Of a stretch of DNA of 40,744 nt, positions 1,616 through 40,744 are shown piece after piece. Source of the stretch: an uncultured bacterium (GTDB taxonomy: Bacteria > Fidelibacterota > UBA2242); assembly GCA_964589175.1 (NCBI GenBank), contig CAZPRY010000010.1, positions 62,000 through 102,743 on the forward strand, in the 5' to 3' direction. The stretch's first letter is position 1. The number at the start of each line of letters is the position of its first letter. The notes under the pieces are model-generated. The model was not told the DNA's origin. It worked only from the letters and a program-made list of their open reading frames with translations, and did no database searches. The translations under genes were made by a program, and so were the position numbers.

Positions 1616-3328
1616 GTGTTTCGAATGAATAATTTTCTAAGACGATTACAGACATCCATTATCCAGCGAATAAAAGTGCTATCGTTTCTGCGCCGGGAAA
1701 CGGGCTTCTCTTTGAAGGAAATTATCCTTCAAGGGGCTTTGGGCGGCCTCGCCAACGCGGTGATCCTGGTTATCATGACGATGGCCTTGCAGGATATTTA
1801 CGAAGAGACCGCCGATTTTCGAATTTTTCTGATGTATATCCTGGCGATGGTGATTCTGTTTATGGCGCAGCGCCGGCTCTACTTTCGGTGGGTTCATCTG
1901 CTGGAGGCGGGCGTTGATCGTACCCGCAATCACCTTGCCGGAGCGATTCTGAATAGTCGCCTGGATTTCATCGAGGGAATGGATCTGGGAGAAGTGTACA
2001 ATCGGCTTACCCAGGAGCTGAATAATATCGCGCAGTTCGGCGCTTTCCTGATCACCGGGATTCAATCCGTTTTCTTTTTACTCTTCATCGTCATATTCCT
2101 GGTGAGTTACTTTCTGCCCTCGGTGATTATTATCGGCATCATGACGCTGGCCGGGACCGTAATTTACCTGGGCATCATTCGGAGAATAAGCGAAAGATAT
2201 CAACATGTGAATGCCAAGGAGGTCGAGTATTTTGATCTTGTGCATGATATTCTGAAGGGAACGAAAGAGATTAAATATCATGCGGGTAGAAGAGAACACA
2301 TCGAGAATGATGCGGGCGAGGTATCCACCAACTTGAGAAATAAACGGATCGAGATTGGGCGACTCTATAATTTCGGTACGATCTTCGGAGCAACGTTTTT
2401 CTATGTTCTCTTCGGCGTGATTGTCTTTATCGTTCCCCTTTTCTACTCGCTACCGGCCGGGATGACGATTATTCTGGTGGCCGTTACGATTTATCTGACC
2501 AGCCCGATCAACGATCTTGTGGTCCGAATTCCAATATTCCAGAAAGTCGGGATTTCCATCGGATTCATCGAATCCCTGGAAAATCAACTGCTTAAGAATG
2601 AGGAAAAAATCATAGTCCCCGCTCCTCAAGCCGCCCGGACTCTGCAGGATTTCAGCCGAATTGAGTTGGATAAGATCTCATTTCGTTACAAGAATCATAA
2701 TAATGGCGACTATTTTTCCGTGGGCCCGCTTTCGCTGACCGTACGACGTGGTGAGATATTGTTTCTGACGGGGGGAAACGGTTGTGGTAAAACCACCCTG
2801 TTGAAGTTGATTGCGTCACTGTATACGCCCGATGAAGGGAAAATTCAGGTCGATGCAACTCAACTGAATGAAACCCATCTCTATGAGTACAGGGATCTAT
2901 TTTCCGCCGTTTTCTCTGATTTTCACCTTTTCGACAGGCTTTACGGTATCAATCTAGCGGACCAGAAGAGCTTACCGGACTATTTGGAAATAATGAAATT
3001 GACCGATAAGGTTTCGATCAAAAACGGCACTTTTTCGACTCTGGAACTCTCGACCGGCCAGCGCAAACGCCTGGCGTTGATTGTCGCTATTCTTGAGGAC
3101 AAACCGGTTTATCTTCTGGATGAATGGGCGGCTGAACAGGATCATGAATTGCGGGATTATTTTTACAAACATATGCTCGGGGATTTGCGGCGGAAAGGGA
3201 AAACTCTGGTTGTCGTGAGCCACGATGAGCGTTACTACAATTATGCGGACCGGGTTATTCAAATGGATTACGGAAAAATCAGGGAAGAAATCGCGACGAA
3301 TCATCAACAAACGCAGGAAAAGCAGTAG
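1616..3328 (+). CDS. ABC transporter, fused TMD-NBD half-transporter, SyrD/cyclic-peptide-exporter-like
   Basis: 570-aa ORF. N-terminal ~300 aa hydrophobic (about 6 TM segments). C-terminal NBD with Walker A GGNGCGKTT, signature LSTGQRKRLAL, Walker B VYLLDEWAAEQD, and H-loop VVSHDE. The LSTGQRKRLA/DEWAAEQD combination is typical of the cyclic-peptide transporter (SyrD/YojI-like) family. The ORF track starts at GTG 1616; the ATG at 1625 (MNNFLRR) is an equally plausible start. No clear SD for either. Confidence 0.85.
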   Translation: MFRMNNFLRRLQTSIIQRIKVLSFLRRETGFSLKEIILQGALGGLANAVILVIMTMALQDIYEETADFRIFLMYILAMVILFMAQRRLYFRWVHLLEAGVDRTRNHLAGAILNSRLDFIEGMDLGEVYNRLTQELNNIAQFGAFLITGIQSVFFLLFIVIFLVSYFLPSVIIIGIMTLAGTVIYLGIIRRISERYQHVNAKEVEYFDLVHDILKGTKEIKYHAGRREHIENDAGEVSTNLRNKRIEIGRLYNFGTIFGATFFYVLFGVIVFIVPLFYSLPAGMTIILVAVTIYLTSPINDLVVRIPIFQKVGISIGFIESLENQLLKNEEKIIVPAPQAARTLQDFSRIELDKISFRYKNHNNGDYFSVGPLSLTVRRGEILFLTGGNGCGKTTLLKLIASLYTPDEGKIQVDATQLNETHLYEYRDLFSAVFSDFHLFDRLYGINLADQKSLPDYLEIMKLTDKVSIKNGTFSTLELSTGQRKRLALIVAILEDKPVYLLDEWAAEQDHELRDYFYKHMLGDLRRKGKTLVVVSHDERYYNYADRVIQMDYGKIREEIATNHQQTQEKQ

Positions 3329-3330
3329 AG

Positions 3331-4959
3331 ATGCGGTTTTTTCGACTACTGAAAGAAGAGTTCGGGGAGGATTTTAATAAATATCTGACCATTTCCGTTG
3401 TGTCGGGATTGATGGTTGCCCTGATACTCGTCATCATCATGGTCGCGATGGGGGACGCCGAAGATCCATCCATTGCCCTGGGTCTTGCTTATCTCGCGGT
3501 GCTGATTACCTACGTTTTAGCGCAATATTATTTACTCAGCCAGGGCTGGCAAAAATCGGAGAGTATTTCGGATGTCATCCGCCGGCGTCTCTCGAAGAAA
3601 ATCCTGCAGGCGGATCTGGCGGGGATAGAAAACATCGGTGAAAGTGAGATTTTTGAACGACTGACTCAGGAGACCACCAATATTTCGCAGTCCGCCGTGT
3701 TCCTGATTCCGTCCTTTCAATCGGTGATTTTGCTTATCTTCATTATGATCTATTTGCTTTTTCTGTTTCCTTTAGGAGTGATTGCCCTGATAGCGTTGCT
3801 GGCGGCGGGCGGCTGGCTTTACTGGCGCCGGGCCCAGAAGATTACGCGGATTTTGAAGCACAGCAACGCCTACGAAATTCGCTTCTATCGGATTTTGAGT
3901 GATATTCTAAATGGTATTAAGGAGATAAAGCTGTTCCAGCGCCGAAAACAGGAGATTCTGAAAACCGTCGGAAAGATGTCGCACCTGCTCCGGAAAATCC
4001 ACAAGATCTGTTATCAGAGCTATTCCGAAGAGTTTATCGGTTCACAATTGTTCTTCTTTGTGCTGATCGGGGCGATTTTATTCCTGCTGCCCAGGATTGT
4101 AGAGATGGAAGTTGAAATTTCCATTAAACTGGTGACTTCGGCGTTTTTTATCATGGGGCCGGTTCTAAGCCTGGCGTTTATGATCCCGCTTTTTGAAAAG
4201 ATGAGGCTCTCTTTCGATTATATCCATGAGTTGGAGGAGCGCCTGGACGCGATCCAGGACCGGGCTTTTACGTTGGAACAGACCCAGGAAGATTTTCGGA
4301 ATTTCGGGAATATCGAAATCAGGGATACCGAATTCCATTACGTGAATCCCGGGGGCGACCGAGGGTTTCAAATCGGTCCGCTTAACCTGAAGATCACGAA
4401 GGGAGAAACTCTGTTTATTGTCGGCGGTAACGGCAGTGGCAAAACGACGATGCTAAAAATGTTGTCCTTGTTGTACTACCCAAGCAGCGGAGAAATTTTG
4501 ATAAATGAGGAGAGGATAGGAGATGCCCAGATCATTTCCTACCGGGAGATGTTTTCAGGGATATTTTCAGATTTTCATCTGTTCGCGAAGATGTATGGAT
4601 TCACACGAGAGGAGCTGGATCTCATCAAGCCTTTGCTGAAAAAAATGAAACTGGAGCAGAAAACAAACTTACGCGAAGATCGTTTTACAACGCTGAAACT
4701 TTCAACCGGGCAGCGCAAGCGCCTCGCGATGATTGTGACTTTACTCGAGGATAAACCGATCCTGATATTTGATGAATGGGCGGCCGAACAGGATGCGGAT
4801 TTCCGTGAGTATTTTTATGATACTATCTTGCCGGAGCTGAAAGAAAAAGGCAAGACAATCTTTGTTGTCACACATGATGAACGGTATCAGGGACTTGCAG
4901 ACCGGGTTGTTCAAATGGATTATGGTAAAATTTCGAAGCTTACCAGCATTCCTGCTTGA
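3331..4959 (+). CDS. ABC transporter, fused TMD-NBD half-transporter, paralog of the upstream gene (probable heterodimer partner)
   Basis: 542-aa ORF starting 3 nt after the upstream stop. Hydrophobic N-terminus. Walker A GGNGSGKTT, signature LSTGQRKRLAM, Walker B ILIFDEWAAEQD, H-loop VVTHDE. Same family as 1616..3328. Confidence 0.85.
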   Translation: MRFFRLLKEEFGEDFNKYLTISVVSGLMVALILVIIMVAMGDAEDPSIALGLAYLAVLITYVLAQYYLLSQGWQKSESISDVIRRRLSKKILQADLAGIENIGESEIFERLTQETTNISQSAVFLIPSFQSVILLIFIMIYLLFLFPLGVIALIALLAAGGWLYWRRAQKITRILKHSNAYEIRFYRILSDILNGIKEIKLFQRRKQEILKTVGKMSHLLRKIHKICYQSYSEEFIGSQLFFFVLIGAILFLLPRIVEMEVEISIKLVTSAFFIMGPVLSLAFMIPLFEKMRLSFDYIHELEERLDAIQDRAFTLEQTQEDFRNFGNIEIRDTEFHYVNPGGDRGFQIGPLNLKITKGETLFIVGGNGSGKTTMLKMLSLLYYPSSGEILINEERIGDAQIISYREMFSGIFSDFHLFAKMYGFTREELDLIKPLLKKMKLEQKTNLREDRFTTLKLSTGQRKRLAMIVTLLEDKPILIFDEWAAEQDADFREYFYDTILPELKEKGKTIFVVTHDERYQGLADRVVQMDYGKISKLTSIPA

Positions 4960-4998: not shown

Positions 4999-7900
4999 AT
5001 GAGTAGAAAAGATCTACGACTTATGACGAATGAATCGACTAAGAATATCTTTCCACTGACGTCCAATCAAAAGTTGATTTGGAGCGAACAGCGGATTTAT
5101 CCGGTATCACCGCTGTACAATATTTGCACCTACATCGCCATAGACGGATTTGTCGATCCTGATTTGTTGCAGCGCGCAACTCAGATCGTGATCGATCAGA
5201 ATGATGCATTGCGTCTGCAATTTCTGGAAATCGATGACGAGCCTTATCAGCAGTTTCTTCCTCACCTTTCATACCAGCAGTCGAGTCTCGATTTCTCCGG
5301 CGAAGACGAACCCGTTCAGGCTTGTCTGGACTGGATGCAGACGCAGAATGAACGGTGTCTGGACATTAGCAGTGCTCCTCTTTTTCAGGCGGCATTATTA
5401 AAAGCTCGCCCTCAGCAGTTCTTCTGGTATTGCAAGATTCATCACCTGATCAACGACGGTTGGGGAAACCAGGTTCATATGCGGAAGATCACGGAAGCCT
5501 ACAATGCGCTGCTCCATCGAACGGATAGCTCTCCGGGCTTCCCGTACCGGGATTACATCGCAGCAGAATCGAATACTACCGATGCCAGGGATGACCGAAA
5601 AAGTATGGCTTTCTGGCGGGAGTATTTAAAACCATTGCCGCCGGCCCTTTTCAGGCAGCGCCCGGATCGGAAAAACATTAAAGCAGCCCGGACGTCCGCG
5701 CGTCAATCGCTCTCGATCTCCCGGGACCTGTATAAACGATTGTCCGATTTTGCGGCGGATCGGGAAATTTCGTTGTATCATCTATTTCTGAGCGTGATCT
5801 ATCTGATTTTCAGTCGTCTTCGCGATACCCGGGATCTAATCATCGGTCTTCCGGTTCTCAATCGCTCCGGGCAGAAGCACAAGTCGGGTTTAGGGCTGTA
5901 CACCGGAGTTTCATTGCTGAGAGTCCGACCGGGGTCCGGAGAGACCATAGCGGAAATAGTGACGTGGATACGATCGGAACTCCGCCGGATCTACCGTCAT
6001 CAGCATGTACCGTTATCAAAGATCAGATGGCGTTTATTTTCCAAAGAAGCGAACAAAGTGACCTTGTCCAGTCTGTCGGTCTCCTTTCTGGATCACCACC
6101 TGGGCCTTCGATTCGGTGAGGCTGTCGGGCAACTGAGAACGCTGTCCAACAACCATCAGCAGTTGCCGCTGACGATTTATATCCTCAAATATGATGATTC
6201 CGCAGACGCCCAGGTTGAATTCGATTATCACCTGTCCTATTTTACGCCGCAGGAAATGGCGCGAATCACCGGCCGCTTTTCGGAGACTCTCAATCTGGTT
6301 ATGGATAATTATAAAAAGCCGATCGATCAGATCGATATATTTACGCAGGAAGACAGAGAGCTGCTGGTCGGTTGTTCTGGTCCGGGGAGGTCAACGCTTC
6401 CGAAAAATGAAAGTCTTGCTGAACCGTTGAGCCAGGTGACGGAGCCAGCCAGCGGGCAGTCTGCCATCATGGTTGAGCGAGACGATCAAGCTCAGTGCGA
6501 AACGAACAGCGCCGAAACCAGATTAATCAATCTCTGGAAAAAAATCTTCATTCGAAAAAAAATCGGCAGAGACGATCATTTCTTCGAAATCGGTGGCCAC
6601 AGCCTTCTCGCGACGCGTCTCGTATCCATGATACGGACTGAATTTCAGGTTGAAATTCGATTGATAAGTATTTTCGATAATCCTGTTCTAAAGGATTTGG
6701 CCGTCCGGATTAGTTCGCTGGAAAAGGCCGCCAGGCGTTCTATACCGGTTGCAGATCAGAAAGCCTTCTATCCGGTCACTCCTCAGCAGCAAAATCTCTG
6801 GATTCTGTCCCATAAGCCGGGCGCCGGCAATATATACAATATTCCGATGGCCTTTCAGATTGGCGGAGGGATTGATAAAACCGCATTAGAGTCGGCTTTC
6901 CAGTCGATTGTTCAGAGGTACGAGATTTTACATACGGTGTTCATCGAAGAGGATGGTGTTCCATTTCAGCGCGTACTGGAAGATTATGGTTTCCATCTGA
7001 TCGAGCATGATTTGCGTCACGAAGCCGATAAAGAAGCTGCGGCGCGGCAAATTATCGAACAGTATGCCACAGAAAGATTTGATTTAGAACAGGGTCCCCT
7101 ACTAAAAGTGATTTTGCTGGAGTTGGAAAAGAACCGGCATGTACTGCTGATCAATATTCATCATATCATCATGGATGGTTGGTCTTGCGAAATATTGCTC
7201 CGTGAGCTCTCCGCGGCATATCGAAATCTGCCGCCATCGAGTACCGCTCCTTTGCTTCAATATAAAGATTATGCTGTCGGGCACGATCGTAAGCTAAGCG
7301 ATGGATCGCGGGAGACGCAACACGAGTACTGGAAAACCAAACTTAGCGGGGATTGGCTCCCGCTGGCCCTGCCGATGGATCACCCCCGACCTGCCCTTAT
7401 GACTTATCGCGGCGACCGGCTGCGACTGAATTTGCCTTCCGGTATTACCCGGGCTTTAGGCAATTTTGCCAGGACTCACGATACCAGCCCTTATATGCTC
7501 CTCACCGCCTTGGTCAAAATATTACTTTATCATTACAGCGGCCAGGACGATATCGTAGTCGGAACAGTGAATTCCGGAAGAACATCTGAAGAATGTATCG
7601 ATATCATAGGCTATTTTGTCCAGACGCTGCCATTACGGGATCAGGTAATTCCGGAAGAGCACTTTTCGCTCCTGCTCCAACGCGTGAAACAGACGATTCT
7701 CGAGGCCGACGCCAACCAGGACTATCCGTTTGAACGGATTGTTAAGGATTTGGATTTGCCGCTTGATCCTTCCCGTAATCCGCTTTTTGACGTATTTATT
7801 TCATATCAGGATAGTGAAGATTTTAAACTGGAATTGAAAGCACTAAGCGTCGAGAAATACGAGTTCGCCTATCCGATCAGCAAGTTTGACCTGAGTTTCG

Positions 7901-10900
7901 TTTTTGAGCAACGTGGCGAAGATCTTGCCCTGGATATCGAGTTCAATACGGATCTTTATCGACGTGACCGGATCGAGCGAATGGCCGGGCATCTGATTGA
8001 ACTTATTCGAAATGCGATGGCGCATTCGGATCGCCGTATTATGGATCTGTCGATCTTAAGTAAACGGGAGCGAGAGCAGATCCTGGATGAGTTTAATCAC
8101 GCTTCATCATCATCCCCGGATGACCGAACGATTGTAGAATTATTCCAGGAGCAGGTGCTAAAGTCTCCCGATCGGACCGCGGTGGAATTCGGGCAAAGCC
8201 GGATCAGTTATAGAGAATTGGATGAAGAGGCTGAAAAAGCAGCCCATCGTCTCCGCGAACAACATCGGGTTCAACCGGGAGATATTGTCGCTGTACTGCT
8301 GGAGCCATCCGAGCGATTTATCATCTCTATAATGGGAATTTTGAAAGCGGGTGCAGCCTATCTGCCGATCGATCCGATGGCTCCGACTGAGCGGGTTCGG
8401 TTCATGTTGCGTGACAGCAGCAGCGAGGTGTTAATCAGCGATGTCGCCGGTTTGCAGGAGGTCGATGCAATTCCTGATTTAATCGTCGTGGATATTGATG
8501 AAGTACGAACGAGCGAATCCCAAATCGCAAAGAACCATGAATCCCGCGCCCCAAAAGCGGGTCCCGATGATCCGGCATATATGATCTATACTTCGGGTAC
8601 GACCGGCTTCCCGAAAGGGGTGCTGATCGAGAATCGCTCTCTGGTGAATCTCATTTACGCTCAAAAACGCCAGATAGGTTTTACGCAGGACGAACGGCAT
8701 CTCTTGTTCTTTTCGATCTCATTCGACGGATCGGTTTTCAATATTTTCCTGGCCCTGCTTAGCGGCGCTTGCTTGTTGATCCCGAAAAAAGAAATTCTGC
8801 TGGAGCCGGAAAACTTTTGCCAATTCCTGGTTGATTCCGGAACAACTTCACTGATCGTAACGCCTTCTTTTTTACATCAGTTATCCCGGGAAAAATTTCC
8901 GACAATCCGGTGGATCGGTACCGGCGGCGAGCCGGTCATCGCGGAAGACGTTGCTTACTATAGTGCCCGGATGGATTACTTTAATTTTTATGGGCCGACC
9001 GAAGCCACAATCGTGGCGATCAGCTGCCGATTAACGCCGGAGAGCAGCCAACGGGATCTGATTGGAACCCCGGTAGATAACTGCGACATCTTCATACTGG
9101 ATGAATCGATGAATCTGCGGCCGGTCGGGATTGCGGGCGAGATATGTATTGGCGGTGCCGGACTGGCAAAGGGGTACCTGAACCGACCGGAACTCACGGC
9201 CGATAAGTTCGTGACAAATCCGGTTAGGACAGGGGAACTGCTCTACCGCACGGGGGACTATGGTTGCTGGTTGCCGGACGGATCGATTGAATTCTTCGGC
9301 CGCCGGGACAACCAGGTTAAAGTGCGCGGATATCGTGTTGAGTTGGATGAAATCGTGGCGACACTGCATAAGTATCCGGGCATAAAGCAGGCGGTTGTCA
9401 CGACAAAGAAATCTGATTCCGGCAACGCGCGATTATTGGCGTATGTCTCCGGGGATCAACTGGAGCAGAATTCGAAAACGGTTGCAGAAATCAGGGATTA
9501 TCTACAAAAATCGCTACCGTTTTATATGCTTCCATCTTCCATCGTTGTCGTACCCCAAATCCCGCTCACAATTAACCAAAAGGTTGATTTTAAACGGCTT
9601 TCCGGCATGGAGGTAAAGGTCCGGGGAACGATTCCCGCGGCCGATAAAGCTGTACGGAAACTATGCGAAATTTTCGGGACCGTTCTGGGGGTCGAGATTT
9701 CCGGTATCCAGCCAGCTGCCTATTTTTTTGATCTGGGCGCAACGTCATTTGATTTAATGAAAGTTCGCGGAAGAATCAGAACTGTTCTTGGCATAGAAGT
9801 TCCCATTACGGCTTTTTTCCAACATCCGTCGATCAATGAGCTGGCCGCTTATATCGCCTCCGGTCAGAAGAAAGAAAAAATTGATCCGGTCCGGGATTCC
9901 GGAACCATCCCGAAAAAGGACAAGATCGCGATTATCGGGATGGCGGGTCGCTTCCCGGGTGCTGAAAATATTACCGAATTCTGGAACAATCTTATCGAGG
10001 GCAAAGAAACCATCCATTTTTTTACAGAGGAGGAGCTGGAAAATGAGGGCCTTCCGCCTGATTTATTCCGGGCTCCGAATTATGTAAAAGCCTTTGGAAT
10101 GCTCTCCGGAGCGGACTGTTTTGATTCCCAATTTTTCTCCTATCCCGGGTCGTGGGCGGAGTCCCTGGATCCGCAGATTCGTATTTTCCACGAAGTTGTA
10201 TATGCGGCGTTGGAAGATGCCGGGGTAGCGCCCGGCGCTTTCCCGCACCGAATTGGACTCTATGCCGGCTCGAGCGATAACTATCGCTGGAGACGATTCA
10301 TTCAAGGAGCCGGTCAAACCGGGGAAAACGAGGGCTGGATCGATTATATGCTGGCAATTCGTGATTTCCTGACGACTCATGTTGCCTATAAACTAAATCT
10401 GAGGGGTCCGGCTGTTTTTGTGCAGACCGGTTGTTCTACTTCCCTATCCGCCACTCATATGGCGTGCCGGTCTCTCCAGATGGGGGAGTGCGAGCTTGCT
10501 ATTGCCGGGGGAGTGACGGTATCGCTGCCTTACGATAAGGGCTACCATTATGAGGAGGGGATAATTTTCTCTCCGGATGGACATTGCCGTGCTTTTGATG
10601 CGGAAGCATCCGGTACGGTTCCGGGCAATGGCGCCGGAGCTGTTGTTTTGAAACCGCTGGAGCAGGCCGTCCGCGACGGCGATTACATTTATGCAGTCAT
10701 TGCCGGAACTGCGATGAATAATGACGGTTCGCTGAAAGCCGGTTTCACCGCGCCGGCTGTTGAAGGGCAGGTCCAGGTGATCCGGGCGGCCCGGCAAGAA
10801 GCCGGTTGCGATGTGGAGAGTATTGGATATGTCGAAACCCATGGTACCGGAACGATATTAGGCGATCCGGTTGAGATATCCGCCCTGGAGCAGGCTTTTG

Positions 10901-13900
10901 CTTCGGAAAAGCGGCAATTCTGTGCCATTGGATCGCTGAAAACCAATCTCGGCCATCTGGATGCAGCCGCGGGGGTGGCGGGTTTGATCAAGACCGCACT
11001 GTCCTTAAACTTTGCTAAGATTCCGCCCAGCCTGCATTTTAAAACCCCCAATCCACAGATTGATTTTGAACACAGCCCGTTCTATGTGAATACGGAGTTA
11101 AAAGAGTGGCCACGACAGGGAACGAATGCCGATCCGATTCGCAGAGCGGGGGTCAGTTCTTTCGGGATTGGCGGAACCAATATGCACATGATCCTGGAAG
11201 AGGCGCCGCGACCCGAGAATATTCCAGCAGGAACGAATCCACTGCCCCGGATTCTTCCCCTTTCCGTGAAAGATCCTGACACCCTAAACAGGATACGAAC
11301 GAATCTGGTCGATTTTCTACGCAAACATCCCCATTCCCGACTCCAGGATCTATCCTATTCTTTGCAGTTCGGACGTGAAAGCCATGTATATCGCCATGCC
11401 TTTACCGTCGTGAATGTCGAAGAGGCAATCCTAAAATTGTCAGATTCGATTTCACCGGATAAAATTATCAAGACCGACATTACGAAATCTTCCAAAATCG
11501 TTTTCCTGTTTCCCGAATCCGGAACTGATTTCCTGGCGATGGGACGCGACTTATACCGGTGGTACCCGAGATTCAGACAAGAGATAGACAGCGGTAATGA
11601 GTCGCTAAGGAAGATTGCCGGCACAGATGTAAAACCCCTGCAGATTGCCTCGGATAGTTCATTTTCATTGGACCGGGATGGGGAGGACTCCGAAATCGCT
11701 CGCCTGGTGTTGGTGATTTTCGGGTACGCCCTCGGAAAACTGCTTGAAAGTTGGGGGGTGCGCCCGGATGCCGTTGCCGGCTACGGTTTGGGAGAATATA
11801 CCGCGGCTTGTTTTTCCGGGATCATGACGCTTGATGAGGCGCTACAACTGGCGCTGGAACGAAACGAACTCCTCACACTTGCACAGGATGCGTCAACTGC
11901 CCGGCCCACAAAAAGAGTACAACAATTTTCTTTACAGACGCCCCGAATTCCTCATTTGTCAGGTTTGTCGGGGGCCTGGATCACGGATCAGGAAGCCCGG
12001 GACAGCGGCTACTGGCAGAATCGATTCAGCCAGACATCTCCTTTCGCAGCAAAGCCGCAAGAGCTCCTGGCAATCGAATACGCGATTTATATCGGGTTTG
12101 GGTCAGATAATCTGTTCACGGAAGCTTTTCAGGAGCACCCGGATCGCGGGCCGGGCCAGCAGCTCATAAATCTGTTCCCAGGTTCGGATCAGGAGAAAGC
12201 GAGTCCCGCGTATCTCCTCAATCGGATTGCGGATCTTTGGTGCATGGGATCTATGATCGATTGGACGGCGGTTTATCCCGGTCCGCATCGAAAAATTCCC
12301 CTGCCCGGCTATCCGTTTCAACGAAAGAGATTTCCCGTCAAGCCGCCGGTCACTCAGCTAAATCAGAATTTCGTGTCGGAAAAACAGGAAGAGCTGGAGA
12401 ATTGGTCCTACGTGCCATCATGGGAACGTGTCCCGTTCGGGATAGATGAAGATAGTGAAACAGTCGTGATATTGCTTTTTTCGGACGGAAATCCGCTGGA
12501 ATATCAATTCCTCGAATACTTCCGGTCCAGATCACTCAAATTTATCACGGTCGGCAGCGGAGCACAATTTATACGCAGCAGCGCTGACCGATTTTACATC
12601 CGACCGACAGAACGCGACGACTATCTGGCGCTTTTCCGGCAACTGGCCGATGAAGATTTGGTGCCGGATAAGGTAGTTCATCTTCGATCATTGGATATAA
12701 GGGTCCGGGAGTCAGAAAACCTTGAGGATGCCCTGCAGAAAAGTTTCTATGGTCTCCAGCATATCGTAGCTGCCCGGACTTCCTGCGCTATTCATAATCC
12801 CGTTTCCCTGATTGTGGTTACCGAGAATCTTTTTGAGGTTCAGGGCGACGAAGAGATCGATCCAATCAAAGCACTGGTCACGGGACCTGTTCTGACGATT
12901 CCGCAGGAATATCCGGAAATTCGGATCTCTCTTATCGATATCGATCCGCTTCAAATTCGATGGAAAGGCGCGACCCGGCTACCGGCCCGCCTGCTGGCGG
13001 AAGGTAGAGATCGCCCCGGGCATGAGATTATCGCTTATCGCGGTCGCTATCGATGGAAAAGGAAATATACGCCAATTCCGTTAAAAGAAGCTTCGCCGGG
13101 CGATCTACCGCTTCGTAATAAGGGAAGCTATTTGATTACCGGAGGCTCCGGCGGGATAGGTTTCAGCATTGCGAAATACCTGGCCGGTAGCTATCAGGCG
13201 CGCCTGGCGTTGGTGGCCCGCCGGGGAGTTTCCGATGAGATGCAACAAACGCTGAAGGAACTCGGGGCAGACGTATTGGCATTTTCAGCGGATGTTGCAG
13301 ACTACCGTGAAATGCAAAAAGTCTTTAGCGCAGTGGCGGAACGATTTGGGAGGATTGACGGAGTAATACACGCTGCGGGAGTAGCGGACGGGGCGGTTAT
13401 CCAGAATCGAACCCGGGAACAATCAGAACTGGTTCTGGAACCGAAGGTGTCGGGTACTCTGAACTTGCACAGACTGCTGGAAGGCAAACAAACAGATTTC
13501 GTCCTGCTCTGTTCCTCGCTGGCATCCGTCATACCGATTATTGGTCAGTTCGCCTACTGCTCGGCAAATGCCTTCGAGGATGCGTTTGCGAACAAAATGA
13601 GTAATTCGGGCGACACTCGTTGGTGTTCGGTCAGTTGGGACAGATGGCTGGATGTTGGCATGGCCGCCCGGTTCCTGGAAGGTCATGAAGGCGGACAGAT
13701 CGGGATTCATACGGATGCCGGAATCGAAATTTTTAAACGGATTCTGAACAGGCAAGAACCCCACATCATCATATCAACTGGAAGTCTGGATCCGCAAGTT
13801 GAAAAGCTAAGAGATACGAGATCCGTTTTTTTGGAATTGAAACACAGTGCCGGGATCAGAAATACTGAATCGATTGATGGAGAGCTTCTTGCGGATACGA

Positions 13901-16900
13901 ACCATAACCGTTCGGAAGTGAAAAATATCGTTCTGAATATCTGGCGCGACATCCTGACCCTGCCGGATCTGGACGCGGATACCAACCTGTTTGATCTCGG
14001 TGTGGACTCGCTCAAGATTATGGATGCTGAATCCAGAATTCAGAAGCAGTTCCGCAAAAAGATTCCGATGGCTGAATTTTTCCGTTTACCGACCGTTCGG
14101 GACCAGACTGCCTACCTGAGCGGTTCCGAAAAAGAGGTCTCCGATTCAATCCCTCGCCAGGCGGAAACGGCTTACTATCCTGTATCTTCTGCGCAAAAGC
14201 GATTGTTTATTCTCCAACAGCTGACAGCGGATAATATTCTTTATAATCAGCCGGCTGTGTTGCGGATTGAGGGTAGTATCGAACCCGCAAGACTGGAGAG
14301 CGCATTTCGAAATCTGATTGAGACAGTTGAGGTATTTCGCAGCTCTTTTCATCTCGTCGAAGATAATCCCGTCCAGGTCATCCATCCTCTGGAAGAGATC
14401 GATTTCCATATCGAATTTTCAAGAGTGATGGGCGAGCCCATCGATGTCGATGAAATCATGGCTGACTTTTTACAGCCGTTCGATCTGTCGAAGCCTCCTT
14501 TAATCAGGGTAAAACTGCTCGAAACGCTTACGGGGATAACGTTTCTTCTGATCGATATTCACCACATAATTAGTGATGGCAGTTCCTATATTGAACTGTT
14601 CGATAGTATTGGCAAACTCTACGCCGGAGAGAAGATCACTCCCCCCAAAATACGATTCAGAGATTATGCGGTCTGGCAGCAAAACCAGAAAGCCCTACAG
14701 GAGTATTGCGAGCAGGGAAAGTACTGGCTGAATGAATTTTCCGGGGAAATACCGATTTTACAATTGCCAAACGATTTTTGTCCCGGCACCGATCCGGATT
14801 TCTGGGGTGATCACCTGGAGTGCAGCATTGGTGTCGAGGAAACCCGGGCGATTAAAGCACTGGCCCGTGAGCGCAATACGACGCTCTTCATCGTTCTTTT
14901 GGCGGCGTTTAAAATCCTGCTGGGCAAGCTCAGCGGACAGGAAGATTTGATTGTCGGGACGCCTACGGCAGGACGCCGAAGGTCGGAGTTTCAACATCTG
15001 ATCGGCATGTTTGTCGATACCCTGGCGATTCGTAGTCGGCCCCAGAAAGAAAAGACTTTTAACGAGTATCTCAGTGAAGTGCAGGAAAAGGTTCTCAAGG
15101 CGTTTGAAAATCAGGAGTACCAGTTTGAAGATCTGGTAGAGGCGCTGAACGTTACCCGCGTCTCCGGAGAGAATCCCATCTTTAATGTCATGTTCATTCT
15201 CCAGAATATGTCAAAACCGGCGTTGTCGCTCGATAATCTGAAGATCTCGGTGCATCCCTGGAAAAAGAAGCTATCCCTGTTTGATCTTACGTTGGAAGTG
15301 ATCGAAGAGGGCGCGGAACTGCGACTCGGTTTTGAATATTCAACCTGGCTTTTTCAGCGGGAGACGATCGCTCAATATGCGGATTACTACCGCGAATTAC
15401 TTCACTCCATTGTGGCGGCGCCGGACTCACCGATAGCGGAAATTCAAATGCTGCCGCCGGCGATGCGGGAGCAGATTCTCCACGACTTTAGCAATTCCGG
15501 TTCAGCATTAGCGGAAGAAAAAACGGTCATGGAGATTTTCCACGAGCAACTGCTGAAGTCTCCCGATCGGACCGCGCTGAAATTCGGACAATACCGTCTC
15601 AGTTACCGAGAACTGGATGAAGAGGCGGAGCAAGTAGCCCATCGTCTTTGCGAACAGCATCGGATTCAACCGGGAGATATCGTCGCTGTACTGCTGGAGC
15701 CATCCGAGCGATTTATCATCTCTGTACTAGGAATTTTGAAAGCGGGAGCGGCGTATCTGCCGATCGATCCGGTAACTCCGACTGAGCGGATTCGGTTCAT
15801 GTTGCGGGACAGCTGCAGTGAGGTGGTAATCAGCGATGTTGCCGGTTTGAAGAATGTCGCTGCAATTCCTGATTTAATTGTCGTGGATATTGATGAAGTC
15901 CGAAAGAAAGAATACCAAACCGCAGAGAGCCATGCGTCCCCCGCCCAAAAAGCGAGCCCGGGCGATCCGGTATATATGATCTATACTTCGGACACGACCG
16001 GCTCCCCGAAAGGGGTGCTGATCGAGAACCGCGCGCTGGCGAATCTCGTATGTGCTCAAAAACGCAGACTGGATTTTACTTCGGATGAACGGCATCTTTT
16101 ATTCTTTTCGATATCGTTTGATGGATCGGTTTTCGATATTTTCCTGCCGCTGCTCAGCGGCGCATGCCTTGTGATCCCGAAAAAGGAAGTTCTGCTGGAG
16201 CCAGAGAACTTCTGCCAATTCCTGGTTGATTCCGGAACGACTTCGCTGATCGTAACGCCTTCCTTTTTACATCAGATACCCGGAGAAAAATTCCCGAAAA
16301 TCCGGCGTATCTGCACTGCCGGCGAGCCCGTCATCGCGAAAGACGCTGCTTACTATAGCGCCCGGATGGATTATTATTGTCACTATGGACCAACCGAGAC
16401 TACGATAATGGCAACCTGCTGTAAATTATTGCCGGAGAGCCGTGAACGGAATCTGATCGGAATTCCCATAGATAACTGCGATATCTTCATATTGGATGAA
16501 TCGATGAATCTGCAGCCGATTGGGATCGCGGGCGAGATATGCGTTGGCGGCGCCGGACTGGCGAGAGGGTACCTGAACCGGCCGGAACTCACGGTTGAGA
16601 AGTTTGTGGTGAATCCGTTTAAGACCGGGGAACTGCTCTATCGCACGGGAGACTACGGTTGCTGGTTAGCGGACGGTTCGATTGAATTCCTTGGCCGGCG
16701 TGACCAGCAGGTAAAATTACAGGGATATAGGATTGAACTCGCGGAGATTGAAAGCCGCATCATGAACTACCCCGATATCGATGGGGCGGCGGTCTTGCTC
16801 AGAGCTTCGCAGGAAGATCGGCAATTGTGGGCTTATATAATCAGCCCAAATGGAAAATTTTCCCTGGATGAGATCAGAAAATATCTGAAAGAATTCCTGC

Positions 16901-19900
16901 CCGAATATATGCTCCCCACCGGCTTTTCTCTTGTTGATAATTTTCCGCTTACGGTGAACGGGAAGATCGATCGGGACGCTCTCGCCAGATTAAGCGATGG
17001 GGAAACTCAGGTACTGACAAGTGCTGATTTTCAAATGCCTCGGAATGATCATGATCGAAGGCTGGTCAAGATCTGGTCGCAACTGCTTTTAAACGAGAAA
17101 ATCGGCCTTCACGATAACTTCTTTGAGTCAGGCGGACAGAGCCTCATGGGCGTACTGTTACTAGCAGCCATTGAACAGGAGTTTCGTGTAAAACTTCGAC
17201 TTCTCGATATTTTCCGGTACCCGGTACTGGCGGATATGTCAGATTTAATCCTCTCGCGATCCCCAAATCAGGGAAAATCCATCTCCCGGCTTCCGGCCAT
17301 GGATCACTATCCGGTTTCAAATGCCCAACGCCGTCTATGGATCTTGAGTAATATCGGAGCCGAGACCGGCGCCTATGATATCGCGGGGACCCTGTTGCTC
17401 AAAGGACAACTGAATCGTGGAGCCCTCGAACGGGCAATCCAAAGAATTGTTGAGCGACACGAATCGCTGCGGACGGTTTTCATCGTAGTTAAAGGAGAAC
17501 CGCGGCAGAAAATCCTTGAAAAACCGGATTTTCATATTCGTATAAAATCGATCGGAAATTCCTTGCAGGAAGAATTCAATCGGAATCTGAAAGAGCGGTT
17601 CGACCTGCAGAAAGGACCTCTGTTCAAGGCGATCCTTTACCCGATCGCCGATGACCGGCATATTCTTTTCATAAATATGCATCACATCATCAGTGACGGT
17701 TGGTCGATCAGCGTTTTGACCAGGGAACTGGGCCAGCTGTACGAAGCATATCTTCATGGGATCAGCGATCCGCTGGCAACTCTGCAATATCAGTATAAAG
17801 ACTACACTGCCTGGCAAAACAAGATGCTGGGCAGTGATGAGTTCGCTGAACACCGGCGTTTCTGGCATACGAAACTGGCCGGTGAGTTGCCGGTTATGAA
17901 TCTGCCGATCGATATAGCCCGTCCATCGGTTCGAAGTTTTCAGGGCGATGCGGTGAGACTTATGCTCGATAAAGCGCAGACCCGCGATTTGAACCGTCTG
18001 GGCGTAAAACAGAATGTTACTCTTTTCATAATCCTGAAAGCCCTGGTCAGTGTTCTGCTGCATCGCTACAGCAATCAGGACGATCTGATTATCGGTACCA
18101 GCGTGGCGGCCCGGGAACGCAAGGAGCTATTTGATCAGATAGGATTTTTCGTCAATACACTGGCGTTGCGAACCACGATCAGCACGGAAGAGCCTTTTTC
18201 CGTATTGCTCGAACGAACCAAGATTGAGATGCTGGATGCGTATGAACATCAATTGTATCCCTTCGATTTGCTGGTCGAGGAACTGAAAATTGAACGGGAC
18301 ATCACCCGGAATCCCATATTTGATGTCATGCTGGTACTCCAGAATAACGAGCCGATGAATCTGGTTTTTGGTGGGCTGGTTTGCGAGGAGACCGATCTTG
18401 ATTATGCTTTCAGCAAATTCGATCTGACATTTAACTTCCGCGAAATGGACGGCGACCTGAAACTCAATCTGGAATATAATACGGATATTTTCCATCGTGA
18501 GCGAATTGAACGAATGGGCGGCCATTTCGAGATGTTGGTGAAGGAAGTACTCCGCGATAGCGACTGTCCGATTGGTAAATTACAGCTGCTGACCGCGTCC
18601 GAAACGCAGATGTTGCTGGGGAGATTCGGAGAGCCGGAAGTCGTTTTTCCGGTTAAAGAGACCATCGTATCAATGTTTCGACGGCAGCTGGCGCAACGCG
18701 CGGATGCGACGGCGCTGCTCTATCAAGATCGCGAAATGACCTATCGCGAACTGGACGAGCGCTCGAACGCCGTCGCAGCACGATTGAAAACAGTCGGAGC
18801 TCTCGAGTCAAATAAAATTGCCGCAGTCATTCTCGATCGTTCGGATCTGGCTGTCGCAGTATTTTTAGGTATTCTGAAAGCGGGAGCGGCCTACCTGCCG
18901 ATCGATCCGGATTATCCACCGGAACGGATTCGCTATATGCTGGCCGACAGCGCCGCTACGGTGCTGATCACCGAGGAGAAGCATTCCGGGGAAGCACGGA
19001 AAATCATTGGCGATTCGCTTTCGGTATCGGAAATTATCGAGATTGAAAAGATTGATAGCTCTCCGGAATATAAAGAGGAACATTTTAATTCCGATACCGC
19101 GGCCTACATCATCTACACCTCCGGGTCGACTGGAAAGCCCAAGGGCTGCATTATTACACATCGAAATCTTATCTCCCTCATTTTTAATGATCGCTTTCCG
19201 TATAAATTCAGTGCGGACGATGTCTGGATCTCCGCTCATTCGTTCTGCTTCGATTTTTCGGTCTGGGAGATGTACGGGGCGCTCCTTTTCGGCGGGCGTT
19301 TCGTGATTATATCGCCGGACGAAGTACGCAGAACGGATCGCTTTCTGGATTTGCTGATCGAACACCAGGTTACCGTCCTGAATCAGACCCCAGGCGCTTT
19401 TTATAATTTGATCGAGGTTGAGAAGCAGCGCGAGTCTCACGATCTGGCCGCGCATCTGCGTTACGTGATTTTCGGCGGAGACCGCCTCGATCCGCACTAT
19501 CTGAAGCCCTGGCTGAAGAACTATCCGCTCAACCGGATTTCTCTGATCAACATGTTCGGCATAACCGAAACCACCATCCATGTCACCTATGGTCCTCTGA
19601 CGGAAAAGGATATTCTCGCATCAACGGGTACGAGTCCGATTGGAAGGCCGTTACCGGATCTGAATGTCTATCTGTTCGATGAGCAGATGAACCTGGTACC
19701 CGTGGGTGTACCCGGGGAGATTTGGGTCGGTGGTCCGCAAGTCAGTCCCGGCTACCTTAACCGTCCGGATCTAAACCGGGAGCGTTTTATCACCTCGCCT
19801 TTTAAGGCAGGGGAGACGCTCTACCGCAGTGGCGATCTCGCCGGATGGAATTCGGATGGCAGCCTCGAGTATCTGGGGCGCAATGATCACCAGGTTCAAG

Positions 19901-21054: not shown

Positions 21055-24000
21055 ATGAAGAAGATAATCAAGTACGAAAACATAAATCCCGCGAAGAATC
21101 CGGAGCTTAGCGTCGAGGAGATTGACTTAAAGGATATCGCGATAATCGGTATCGGTTTACGCTTAATGGATTATACCGGCACGGAAGATCTGTGGAATGA
21201 TCTGATCACGAGTCAGGATAAGATCAGCCGGTTTCCCGAAAACCGGAAAGCCGATACCACCGCTATGTTAGTTCGTCAAGGTAAAAATAATCCCGGGATT
21301 TCGTTCAGTGAGCAAGCCTATTTGGATTCCATTGATGCGTTCGACCGGTCCTTCTTCCGCATCTCGCCGAAAGAGGCGATGTTCATCAACCCAGGGCACC
21401 GCATTTTTCTGGAAACAGCCTGGCGGGCAGTGGAGGATGCCGGATACGGTGGCGACCGGCTTAAAAATTCGAGCACAGGCGTATATCTCGGAATTGTACC
21501 GGATCGCAACTACTCTGATTTTGTGTACAGCCTTTACCCGGATCAGGCGGACAAAATTTTTGTTGGCAATGTTCCTTCCAATGCCGCCAGCCGTATCTCC
21601 TATATTTTGGACTGGCACGGACCGGCGGTGAACATCGATACTGCCTGTTCATCATCCCTGGTAGCGGTTCATCTTGCCTGTCGCGCATTGCGGAACCGGG
21701 AATGCGACGTAGCGCTGGCCGGCGGTGTGAACATCAACCTCTTGCCGGTCGCAGTATCACAGGAGATCGATATCATCTCTGCGGATGGCCGGACGCGCAC
21801 CTTTGACGAATCTTCCGATGGTACCGGCGGTGGCGAGGGCGTGCTGGCGATTTTGCTAAAACCGCTGACTTATGCCCTGCGTGATCACGACCACATCCAT
21901 GCTGTAATTAAAGGAAGCGCGGTAAACAACGATGGGGATTCAGCCGGAATGACGGTGCCCAATGCGAAGGCCCAGGCGGATGTGATCCGAACTGCCTGGA
22001 AGGACGCCGGAATTTCACCCGAGTCCATCGGTTATATCGAGGCCCATGGAACCGGTACGCGCTTGGGAGATCCGATCGAGATCGATGGGATCCAAAGGGC
22101 GTTTTCAAATTACAGCCGCAGAAAGCAGTTTATCCCGATCGGTTCGGTGAAGTCCAACTTTGGACACCTGGATGCCGCTGCCGGAATTCTGGGATTGATC
22201 AAAAGCGTCCTCTGTCTCCGCAACCGAATGATTCCCCCTATCGTGCATTTTCGGAGTCCGAATAAAAATATTCCCTTTGCCGATACCCCGGTATATCCCT
22301 GCGCGGAGTTGATGGAATGGAAAAAAGATGATCTGCCCCGCCGTTGTGGAATCAGTTCCTTCGGATTGAGCGGTACCAATTGCCATGTCATCCTCGAAGA
22401 AGCACCCGAACTTGAATCACAACCGGAAGACAGGCTGACCCGAAACCACTTGTTCACACTTTCCGCCCGTGATTCGGATGCTTTAAAGCGCTACGCGGAG
22501 CTTCTTTTTCATTTTCTGGAACAGACAGCGGATCTATCGCTTCCAGATGTCTGCTTTACACTGAATAGCGGTCGTGGTCATTATAATCATCGTATTGCGA
22601 TTGTCGTCCCGGAGATATCCGTACTTAGAAAAAAACTGCAGTTCCTGTTGGAAAAGGGACTCAGATCTGATCCCGCTCAGGGGATATTTTATCATCAATT
22701 TATGCTGGTTCCCGAAAATTCAAACGAAGAAAAGGCGAGTGCTTTCACTCAAAAATCGATACGTACGGTGAGCGCCGAGACCAGGGAACTCATTAAGCAA
22801 TTTCTCGATGAACCCAAAGAAACGCTCCTTTCCCGAATTGCCGAGAAATACGTGAATGGTGCGGATATCGATTGGGAGCATTTCTATCCCCCGGATTCTA
22901 CCCGCCGAGTTTCCCTGCCGCCCTACCCGTTCGAGAAGAAACGGTGCTGGCCGGATCTTTCTGCGACTATTGCCAAAGAGGCTACGCGATACAGCAGCCG
23001 CTACTCTGATTTCCGGCCGGCGGTTTTCCTGAAGCATTTGCTCGCGGAAAGCGAAGCGATGTCTGTTTTCTCAATCCGTCTCGATCCCGAAACTGACTGG
23101 GTTTTAAAAGAGCATCGCATTGCCGGCAAACCTACCCTGGTAGGGGCCGCCTATTTCCAGATCTTATTCGAAGCAGCCGAATATCTCGGATACAATAATG
23201 GTTTCGAAATTAATGAATTGCAGATACGCAAAACGCTGACCACAGAAAAAGCGGTTGAAATCTTATTAATCCTGCACAGGCAAAAGCAAGAGGTTCGGGC
23301 TGTCTTCCAGGAGAAGGACGAAAATTCAGGTTGGATTGACTATGCATCCGCCCGGCTTTCCAAACTGAATTCGTTGCCGGACAAGCCGGTTGATCTGGAC
23401 GAAATCAGGAATCAATATTCTTCGATGCTGGATGTAAATAAAGAAGATTTGAAGAGAGCCGCAATTGCGAGCGCCGTGCAGACCTCCGAAAGATGGCACT
23501 GTCTGAACAGAGTTTACAGCGACGGAAAGCAGAAGCTCGGGCAATTCAGCCTACCGGGCAGCTTCCGCGGCGATTTGCCTGCCTACCGCATGCATCCGGG
23601 GATGCTGGATGTGGCCATGAGTCTTAACCTGCAGACTCCCGGTTTCTTTCCGGCGGCAGGTTTCGGTCTGCGAATATACAAACCACTTCCGTCTGAAATA
23701 TACAGCCATATTCGAAAAAAGGTCTCGGATTCGGCGAAATCGCTGGAATTCTCCATCACACTGACCGACATGGAAGGAAATATTCTGGCGGATTTTGAAC
23801 GCTTTCTTTTCCTGCGAAGCGAGAGGGAATTGCCTGCAGCGGCGGCACTGGTTCGGAAAATCCGCTGGTCGGAGATTCCCGGGATCGAATATTCCGCTAC
23901 CGGAGCCAGGCCTGATTTTCTCTTGATTGGCAGGGGATCAGCATTTCAGCGATTACGTGAAAATCTTATGAAGCAGGCGCCCGGTTTTTCGGTTTTCGAT

Positions 24001-34218: not shown

Positions 34219-35103
34219 TTGAAAGAGTCGGGTGCCATAAAAAGTATTTTTATCATAGCATATCACAAGATAAAAGCATGGTTTAAGAAAAAGTGGAATA
34301 AGTATAAATACGGAATCGTTATCACAACGCTGATTCTGTTATTTCTTATTATTTACTTCTGGAAAAATATTTTTATTTCCATACATCCCGGTTATAAAGG
34401 GGTTTTGTGGCATAGGTTTGGCGGTACGGTGCTGACGAGAGTTTACGGGGAGGGGGTCCATGCCATTCTGCCGATTGACAGGATGATCCTCTATGATATC
34501 AAAAGGCAAAACATTGACGATTCCATCAGTATTTTGACTTCGGAAGGTTTGTATATCGACCTGCAGTACTCCTTTCGTTTCCATCCCATAGCGGATTCGG
34601 TGGCGGTGATTCATCAGAGTATTGGAAGTGACTATCTCGCAAAAATTGTATTGCCGGAAGTCAGGGGAGCCGCTTTGTCCGTTATCGGTAATTATACGCC
34701 GGAGAAACTTTATAAGATGTCCACGCTTTTTATTCAGGCCAGCATCCGGCATCATTTACTAAAACAGCTATCACCATATAATATCATCATCGAGGACATC
34801 ATTATCACGAAAATTACCTTGCCGGAGACGATCAAAGCATCGATAGAGCGCAAACTCGCGGCAGAGCAGTTGTCGATGGAGTTCGATTATAAACTGATGA
34901 TCGAAGAAAAGGAACGCCAAAGGAAGGCGATAGAGGCCAGTGGTATCCGGGAATTCGAAACCGTGTCCGGGATATCGATCCTGAAATGGAAAGGGCTGGA
35001 AGTTACCTCGGAGTTGGCGAAATCCGAGAATGCCAAGATTATCATAATGGGGAACGGTGATCAGGACTTACCGATTCTGCTAAATACGGAATCCAAGCCA
35101 TGA
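34219..35103 (+). CDS. SPFH/band-7 (prohibitin/HflC-like) membrane protein
   Basis: N-terminal TM (IVITTLILLFLIIYFW), then a PHB-domain pattern (IHPGYKGVLWHRFGG...GEGVHAILP...ILTSEGLYIDLQYSFRF...) and a coiled-coil AEQ...EEKERQRKAIEA region. Confidence 0.65.
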   Translation: MKESGAIKSIFIIAYHKIKAWFKKKWNKYKYGIVITTLILLFLIIYFWKNIFISIHPGYKGVLWHRFGGTVLTRVYGEGVHAILPIDRMILYDIKRQNIDDSISILTSEGLYIDLQYSFRFHPIADSVAVIHQSIGSDYLAKIVLPEVRGAALSVIGNYTPEKLYKMSTLFIQASIRHHLLKQLSPYNIIIEDIIITKITLPETIKASIERKLAAEQLSMEFDYKLMIEEKERQRKAIEASGIREFETVSGISILKWKGLEVTSELAKSENAKIIIMGNGDQDLPILLNTESKP

Positions 35104-36988: not shown

Positions 36989-37064
36989 GAGAATCGACGG
37001 CGACAGGTATCACAATCTTTGAAATGATTTTTATTATTATGAACACAAAAAGGCAGGGTTTCTT

Positions 37065-37235
37065 ATGTTAGTAGCAGTGTGGGTGATCTTAAGTTTTATC
37101 GTGGGAATCTTGGGCAGGAAAACTGTTTTGGGGTTCTGGGGTGCTTTCATCTTTTCTCTTTTTTTTACACCGGTTCTTGTTTTGCTGTACGTTGTGCTCG
37201 CTAAAAAAGAGAAGGAACCGAATACAGAGGAATAA
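37065..37235 (+). CDS. Possible 56-aa two-TM micro-protein (MLVAVWVILSFIVGILGRKTVLGFWGAFIFSLFFTPVLVLLYVVLAKKEKEPNTEE)
   Basis: Found by manual translation; below the 60-aa cutoff of the supplied track. Two clear hydrophobic helices and a charged C-terminus; weak SD (aggcaggg). Confidence 0.25.
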   Translation: MLVAVWVILSFIVGILGRKTVLGFWGAFIFSLFFTPVLVLLYVVLAKKEKEPNTEE

Positions 37236-37262
37236 TAAATACACGCTCACAAGGAGGTAACG

Positions 37263-40690: not shown

Positions 40691-40744
40691 GCGTATTTAT
40701 AGCGAATTGCAAAAATAATGTCCGATGAATGCGAAAAAAAGGTA

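Follow-up and report, generated by a model that had tools for sequence, protein, structure and literature searches.

We examined a 40,744-nucleotide stretch of DNA from an uncultured bacterium of the Fidelibacterota (GenBank assembly GCA_964589175.1, contig CAZPRY010000010.1, positions 62,000 to 102,743), here called the window, whose plus strand carries what we identify from its predicted proteins as a hybrid nonribosomal peptide synthetase-polyketide synthase (NRPS-PKS; peptide-polyketide) gene cluster. In the first polyketide module, encoded by open reading frame 1 (ORF1), the position of a cis-acting acyltransferase (AT) is taken by a domain, written here AT°, that is an AT homologue stripped of its catalytic parts; the second polyketide module, in ORF2, has no AT at all. 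The joint explanation that we favor, with a probability of about 0.7, is that AT° is a pseudo-acyltransferase with a structural role, and that the acyl carrier proteins (ACPs) of the two modules, ACP1 and ACP2, receive their malonyl units in trans from an enzyme encoded outside the cluster.

Homology and missing catalytic parts of AT°

AT° spans 11497-12339 (ORF1 residues 2167-2447). An earlier note, made from the sequence without database searches, had described it as a domain in the cis-AT position whose nucleophilic Ser is replaced, and both parts of that description held. Alignment to the Pfam profile PF00698 (Acyl_transf_1), the check proposed in that note, gave a score of 63.1 bits, well over the cut-off of 32.7 (E=3.9e-17), for a match limited to profile positions 1-121 of 319. 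In a phmmer search of the PDB the best match (E=1.6e-35) was the AT of ZmaA from the zwittermicin PKS (ZmaA-AT, 4QBU). This hydroxymalonyl-ACP-specific enzyme is the closest solved relative of AT° by sequence and by predicted fold, and shares with it the Tyr before the nucleophile, the linker between ketosynthase (KS) and AT, and the post-AT linker. The alignment falls into two blocks, ZmaA 91-222 (to the helix past the nucleophile elbow) and ZmaA 312-443, with ZmaA 223-311 standing opposite only 13 AT° residues. As the ZmaA small subdomain is A226-I292 and its catalytic-His motif is G294-AA-H297 (PMC4207774), both are therefore missing in AT°. Whereas ZmaA-AT, an active enzyme, keeps Ser192, A226-I292 and His297 (in GAAH) (PMC4207774), AT° has Gly at the nucleophile position and no equivalent of 223-311.

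We also built our own AT hidden Markov model (HMM) from eight full-length ATs. Residues 2167-2295 of ORF1 align to its positions 1-129 and residues 2305-2445 to positions 213-353, and nine AT° residues take the place of 83 profile positions (130-212), among them HAFH at 197-200. Functional ATs of the same set typically have 79-87 residues in this small-subdomain region, compared with the nine of AT°. The small subdomain had been called shortened; the loss is real, but next to nothing of the subdomain is left, and the catalytic His has been lost with it. AT° still has its large subdomain of the alpha/beta-hydrolase fold, with the elbow (GxGxGEYxAAC), and the post-AT linker. Its parts, and the linker domain before it, are as follows.

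11047-11451, plus strand: KS-to-AT linker domain (LD), residues 2017-2151 (Pfam KAsynt_C_assoc, CurL-like_PKS_C and RhiE-like_linker)
11497-11883, plus strand: N-terminal part of the AT° large subdomain, residues 2167-2295 (PF00698, own AT HMM, ZmaA 91-222)
11509-11532, plus strand: degenerate oxyanion-hole motif FPESGTDF (alignment; HMM-aligned motif PESGTDF)
11779-11793, plus strand: nucleophile-elbow motif GYGLG (DNA read, alignments)
11884-11910, plus strand: nine-residue connector, residues 2296-2304, in place of the small ferredoxin-like subdomain and HAFH/YASH (HMM coordinates)
11911-12339, plus strand: C-terminal part of the AT° large subdomain and post-AT linker ending LPGYPFQRKRFPV, residues 2305-2447 (HMM, ZmaA 312-443)

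Read from the DNA, the elbow is ggc tac ggt ttg gga (G-Y-G-L-G), with the Tyr codon at 11782-11784 and, at the catalytic Ser position, the Gly codon ggt at 11785-11787, exactly where the two replaced codons had been placed before. The motif aligns to GYSFG of ZmaA and to GHSxG of the eight ATs, and no Ser, Cys or Thr stands at the nucleophile position; a change of Ser to Gly from AGT to GGT would need one transition. Replacement of the oxyanion motif by FPESGTDF, also claimed earlier, was borne out by alignment to FxGQGxQY, in which GQGxQ reads ESGTD and the oxyanion Gln is replaced. The further claim that a change of His to Tyr was part of the inactivation had to be dropped: ZmaA (GYSFG) and ZmaF (GYSLG) are active ATs, using ACP-linked extender units, in which GYS is native (PMC4207774). 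Since GYS is native to active ATs and ZmaA is the closest relative, AT° descends from a ZmaA-like cis-AT of the GYS type, and within the motif only the Ser-to-Gly change is inactivating. This ancestry prompted us to consider a cassette for ACP-linked extender units, which we rejected upon finding no carrier protein, dehydrogenase or FkbH-like gene for it among the window ORFs.

An Arg is kept in AT° about 25 residues past the nucleophile (the R of ALERNELL, an invariant column), where it pairs with the R of ZmaA VVKRGQLM. We take this residue to be the equivalent of FabD Arg117, which in FabD-type enzymes binds the malonyl carboxylate. Of six AT features that can be tested by sequence, AT° thus has two, profile homology and the Arg, and fails on four, namely the Ser, the catalytic His, the small subdomain and GQGxQ. 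The retained Arg, together with a PF00698 score above the gathering threshold, is what could be said for AT° still being an acyltransferase by way of non-canonical catalytic residues. We hold this to be extremely improbable: Gly, rather than Ser, Cys or Thr, stands at the elbow, the oxyanion Gln has given way to another residue, and AT° lacks both the catalytic His and the small subdomain, which forms half of the active-site cleft. Lacking these four elements, AT° cannot be a transacylase. Judged from its sequence, it is an AT homologue that is catalytically inert despite passing the Pfam threshold, and it should not be annotated as an AT.

Predicted fold of AT°

An AlphaFold2 model spanning LD, AT° and the post-AT linker (ORF1 residues 2017-2487) has a mean pLDDT of 79.8, with 228 residues at 90 or above. 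Word-indexed protein searches with AT° and with a 14-member remnant profile gave short fragments, which were used solely as input for structure prediction. In the model the strand-turn-helix elbow around GYGLG is kept, and pLDDT is lower at the deletion junction, where a short loop follows helix 262-279. The top fold matches are ZmaA-AT (Foldseek E=5e-24), SpnD-AT and KS-AT didomains. By this prediction AT° looks like a folded large subdomain still joined to its linkers rather than random coil.

Apparent competence of the two polyketide modules

We located the remaining domains of the two modules by Pfam and by their motifs.

9919-11040, plus strand: KS1, ORF1 residues 1641-2014 (Pfam PF00109/PF02801, motifs)
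13123-13647, plus strand: ketoreductase 1 (KR1), ORF1 residues 2709-2883, Rossmann motif GGSGGIG (Pfam PF08659, motif)
13930-14118, plus strand: ACP1, ORF1 residues 2978-3040, phosphopantetheine site LGVDSL (Pfam PP-binding, motif)
21130-22251, plus strand: KS2, ORF2 residues 26-399 (Pfam, motifs, PDB matches)
25477-25479, plus strand: Ser codon of ACP2, LGGDSI motif, ORF2 residue 1475 (motif search; Pfam PP-binding in two stretches of ORF2)

The catalytic Cys, His and His are present both in KS1 (GCSTS, HGTGT, NLGH) and in KS2 (DTACSSS, HGTGT, NFGH). Since both triads, the KR1 Rossmann motif and the Ser of ACP1 and ACP2 are kept, both modules look like elongating modules that need malonyl-ACP; module 1, read as A-T-KS-KR-ACP, would be expected to yield a beta-hydroxy-gamma-amino unit, and module 2 an enoyl unit. 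The best PDB matches of KS1 are trans-AT or NRPS-accepting KSs (7ZMA, 4WKY, ClbI, 4OQJ, ClbC); compared by bit score against solved structures, which is not a clade placement, KS1 gives 498 with 4WKY, 471 with ClbI, 467 with 4OQJ and 466 with ClbC, as against 319 with CurL and at most 295 with DEBS. By the same measure KS2 gives 415 with 7ZMC and 411 with PksL (trans-AT KSs 406-415), 398 with the cis-AT CurL and 362 with DEBS. KS1 is also ~58% identical to KSs of functional cis-AT didomains.

The AT° region was compared across six loci from five metagenome assemblies and is identical in all of them, the GYGLG codons included, apart from two single-nucleotide polymorphisms (SNPs). Recovery of the same sequence from six loci in five assemblies shows that GYGLG is no assembly artefact. 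The SNPs are adjacent and nonsynonymous (Q2340R and N2341S in YWQNRF, window positions 12017 and 12020), and two of the loci (L030 and L031) have both in common.

These data bear on the idea that module 1 is decaying, skipped or non-elongating and that the dead AT is one symptom of this. In its favor, the AT is dead and both of its SNPs are nonsynonymous. Set against this, KS1 keeps Cys-His-His, KR1 its Rossmann motif and ACP1 its Ser, the 16-kb ORF1 is intact in five assemblies, and in the degenerate-AT modules found elsewhere (described below) a competent Cys-His-His KS is present in 40 of 45, compared with 360 of 382 modules with functional ATs. We therefore consider a skipped module 1 very improbable.

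The neighboring module and the search for an AT gene

In ORF2 the KS is followed by a single linker feature.

22258-22944, plus strand: KS-flanking linker domain and post-AT-like wrap-back linker, ORF2 residues 402-630 (Pfam linker families, then PS-DH)

The match of our AT HMM in ORF2 is confined to residues 587-630, at profile positions 309-352, which is the post-AT-linker part, and ORF2 KS-LD-SLPPYPFEKKRCW aligns without a break to both KS-LD units of the trans-AT bimodule 7ZMA. From these two results we conclude that ORF2 has no AT core. This supports what had been proposed before on inspection: its module is AT-less, and the flank of its KS is of trans-AT type.

The earlier statement that no AT is encoded in the window was confirmed and extended. 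A Pfam scan found no match to PF00698 in the remaining window ORFs, and no AT was seen among gene calls in the 10 kb downstream of the window, which we followed on contigs from other samples. That region encodes alpha-amylase, SASA, B12-binding, CobW and URO-D domains, an AraC regulator and a SusC-like TonB receptor; the SusC-like gene and DUF6268 would point to a host among the Bacteroidota. Upstream, all contigs end within a periplasmic-binding-protein gene. Scans of genome and metagenome contigs with the AT° peptide returned only distant ATs, mostly full-length, with 25-40% identity. The need for a discrete AT, which the note had taken as a consequence of these two modules, would follow from an inert AT° and an AT-less ORF2.

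Recurrence of degenerate ATs

An exhaustive HMMER search of 1.84 billion representative proteins returned the source protein itself and thousands of ATs. The 150 proteins with the best scores contain 426 AT-like units that we could delimit as complete. The Ser is missing from 36 of these units, the small-subdomain region has fewer than 50 residues in 31, and both defects occur together in 27; because the relatives were retrieved with a dead AT as query, these frequencies are biased upward and are not population frequencies. Functional GYSxG ATs are present among the same relatives. The degenerate ATs lie in modules of the KS-LD-AT°-KR-ACP type, and GYGLG occurs twice more among them, along with GYGIG, GYGVG, GVGVG, GFGIG, GSGIG and GQGAG; the Ser position is Gly in most, and in all 14 of the remnants that we aligned. 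Across these 14, conservation is found in the elbow with the helix after it (GxGxGEYxAAC), in a YW motif and in the LPxYPF wrap-back linker, and not in the catalytic residues, a pattern that fits structural retention.

The ratio of AT to KS identity is 0.60 for the window remnant, against 0.67±0.08 for 382 functional didomains, so the remnant is only mildly more diverged than its KS predicts. We considered a single origin of the remnants and rejected it, as the nearest neighbors of the dead ATs are mostly functional ATs in a test that is crude and based on a biased sample (identity distances on large-subdomain columns with the motif columns masked). For the window remnant the nearest neighbors are functional ATs with 33-37% identity. 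That dead ATs lie nearest to functional ones points to repeated, independent loss.

A second NRPS-PKS locus, in the Bacteroidota member Flavobacteriaceae bacterium M23B6Z8 (CP176050.1; L019), has a gene of the order KS-LD-AT-ACP-C-A-T... (C, condensation; A, adenylation; T, carrier) whose AT (L019:10001-11047) keeps the small subdomain and carries GYGFG, FSGKKAIY and PHSMYT (HAFH replaced by HSMY) as its catalytic motifs, and is full-length but dead. No AT gene was found within 10 kb on either side of it. Taken together, L019 and the window form a graded series and display three grades of AT loss that are of interest for evolution: an AT that is point-mutated (L019), one from which a subdomain is deleted (window module 1) and one that is fully excised (window module 2, ORF2). 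The dead-AT module of L019 lies directly downstream of a luciferase-like monooxygenase gene.

The arrangement had been called an evolutionary snapshot of a cis-AT module turning into one served in trans. Passage from cis-AT to trans-AT is plausible and a decay series is visible, but like remnants recur in unrelated megasynthases, the window remnant is not unusually diverged and is predicted with confidence to fold, and 40 of 45 such modules keep a Cys-His-His KS. This makes AT° look less like a passing intermediate than like a structural end state that is stable.

The same observations could be claimed for a remnant that is a functional pseudoenzyme, serving at module 1 as a platform on which FabD or a trans-AT docks, or positioning ACP1. 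The large subdomain is kept and well folded by prediction at an AT/KS ratio within the range given above, the Arg equivalent to that of FabD is retained in ALERNELL, and remnants of like build recur in many assembly lines. Docking also agrees with the older idea of an AT docking domain. We nevertheless judge it unlikely: the remnants form no clade, their surfaces are poorly conserved, and module 2 has no AT core at all, which means that trans loading in this assembly line does not depend on a docking remnant. To our knowledge the trans-ATs studied to date (DSZS AT, KirCII) bind the ACP directly, which also speaks against it.

On a wider view, and as a speculation to which we give only a modest chance, pseudo-ATs consisting of the large subdomain alone (Ser replaced, usually by Gly; small subdomain and His excised; elbow helix and wrap-back linker conserved) could represent a third state of PKS modules, between cis-AT and trans-AT, that is widespread but has mostly gone unremarked. 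They would arise repeatedly and be kept because they are needed, as an architectural brace or as a landing site for the loader. If so, the window, with a remnant module beside a fully AT-less one and no AT gene near, would be a natural test case, and such recurrent pseudo-ATs may merit a systematic census. We found little on inactive, truncated or remnant AT domains in the open-access literature.

We noted that functional cis-ATs often occur on the same polypeptide as degenerate ATs (P0014, P0099, P0021, P0070 and others), and that the module holding the degenerate AT is often the first or the last one of its protein; a neighboring cis-AT might load such modules in trans. Kitasatospora loci with a tblastn match ending at residue 150 were considered as truncated ATs like that of pepstatin PepC (see below) and rejected, as translation of one of them (L011) gave a normal GHSLG AT with a small subdomain.

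Proposed loading of ACP1 and ACP2 in trans

According to the explanation that we favor, AT° would be inert and probably architectural, keeping the KS-LD-...-KR connection in the geometry that it has in cis-AT modules, with its post-AT linker wrapping back onto the linker domain and KS. Module 1 (KS-LD-AT°-KR-ACP) and module 2 (KS-LD-DH-KR-ACP; DH, dehydratase) would be otherwise competent and would elongate with malonyl units, and the loader of ACP1 and ACP2 would be either the housekeeping FabD or a discrete trans-AT encoded elsewhere in the genome. Trans loading has precedents: FabD loads the ACP of the AT-less PipC in pseudotetraivprolide biosynthesis (PMC12828459), FabD1 replaces the missing AT in FK228 biosynthesis (PMC12994790), and engineered Ser-to-Ala cis-AT modules are rescued by a trans-AT (PMC6943886). 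We infer trans loading, the kind of loader and the structural role of the remnant from these precedents together with the results above.

Several points weigh against this explanation. The structural role of AT° is read from conservation and predicted fold; the set of relatives in which remnants recur is enriched by the choice of query; polymorphism in AT° amounts to the two nonsynonymous SNPs, too few for a dN/dS estimate; and no candidate loader was identified in the window or in the 10 kb downstream.

An alternative is that ACP1 and ACP2 malonylate themselves from malonyl-CoA, in which case no discrete AT would be needed. The PipC ACP does self-acylate at 25 µM or above (PMC12828459). However, the same study measured FabD catalysis above this self-acylation background (PMC12828459), E. 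coli gave no FK228 unless AT and PPTase (phosphopantetheinyl transferase) genes were added (PMC12994790), and no feature of ACP1 or ACP2 that we examined suggests self-loading. We consider self-malonylation quite improbable and loading by an enzyme encoded outside the cluster the better account.

Comparison with known systems

Like the window, the clusters of PipC (pseudotetraivprolide) and DepB/DepC (FK228) are NRPS-PKS hybrids with no functional AT in the cluster (PMC12828459, PMC12994790). In both the extender is supplied by an enzyme encoded elsewhere, and window module 2 has the same KS-LD build; for PipC a docking/linker domain only, with no AT-like core, is described, whereas window module 1 retains ~270 residues of AT large subdomain. 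Among trans-AT KS-LD units (7ZMA, PksL, PksJ), 7ZMA aligns end to end with the window KS2-LD-wrap-back linker. In canonical trans-AT clusters one or more discrete ATs are encoded and the KS is not followed by an AT core, and neither is true of window module 1. The window and the 10 kb downstream lack the discrete AT gene expected of a trans-AT PKS cluster, and the order of KS, then LD with wrap-back linker, then the next domain, is found in ORF2, while module 1 of ORF1 has the ~270-residue AT core. The cluster operates like an AT-less hybrid NRPS-PKS and falls short of the full definition of a trans-AT PKS.

A truncated AT has been reported for the PKS gene pepC of the pepstatin cluster, which lies beside a Leu-activating NRPS with which it makes a statine-type unit (PMC12081711). 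Its authors drew PepC as a cis-AT KS-AT-ACP and left the missing parts unspecified, so that we liken it to the window by description only (PMC12081711). Engineered AT-null modules with Ser changed to Ala, combined with the disorazole trans-AT, demonstrate that loss of activity in the AT of a cis-AT module does not prevent elongation when an AT is supplied in trans (PMC6943886); those are point mutants with the whole AT fold, whereas the loss in the window is natural and includes a deletion of ~75-90 residues. The arrangement as such is not new, since AT-less hybrids served by FabD are established and a truncated AT has already been mentioned for PepC.

For genome mining, a dead AT that passes the Pfam threshold misleads automated tools into calling a cis-AT module with a false extender specificity, when it would be an enzyme encoded outside the cluster that selects the actual extender. 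In PKS engineering, the remnants show which portions of an AT, namely the small subdomain and the catalytic His, a module can lose and presumably still function, and this bears on designs that swap a cis-AT for a trans-AT.

Layout of the cluster and other observations

The genes of the assembly line and its accessories are listed below.

1616-4959, plus strand: two ABC transporter genes (cluster layout)
4999-21054, plus strand: ORF1, hybrid NRPS-PKS megasynthase of 5351 residues (ORF list, translation, Pfam)
21055-30114, plus strand: ORF2, 3019 residues, KS-LD-DH-KR-ACP-C-A-T-C (Pfam)
30130-33660, plus strand: ORF3, an A domain with embedded methyltransferase, T and thioesterase (Pfam)
38105-38878, plus strand: type II thioesterase, accessory and not an AT (Pfam)
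38906-39586, plus strand: Sfp-type PPTase, accessory and not an AT (Pfam)

By Pfam and our domain map the order of domains in ORF1 is C-T-C-A-T-KS-LD-AT°-KR-ACP-C-A-T-C-A-T. The protein begins (4999-6750, residues 1-~580) with a condensation domain and, immediately after it, a carrier domain (FFEIGGHSLL), so that its first module, which precedes the first full C-A-T module, has no adenylation domain. The C-terminal ~250 residues of ORF1 (~20300-21051), past the last carrier and directly before KS2 of ORF2, have no Pfam match and could be a degenerate condensation-like or docking region. ORF1 also contains a direct repeat of ~1.18 kb with 84% nucleotide identity (8139-9321 and 15535-16716) that spans the cores of two adenylation domains, which points to recent duplication or recombination of A domains within the assembly line.

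Between ORF3 and the type II thioesterase and PPTase genes lie four genes foreign to assembly-line chemistry (34219-37763), encoding an SPFH/Band 7 protein, an NMT1/THI5-like binding protein, a dCache sensor fragment and a DUF697 protein. At the 3' end, window positions 40700-40744 are wholly unlike contig L024, which runs on into the alpha-amylase gene, and several other contigs stop precisely at position 40744. The end of the window may thus be an assembly breakpoint or the site of a strain-level rearrangement.

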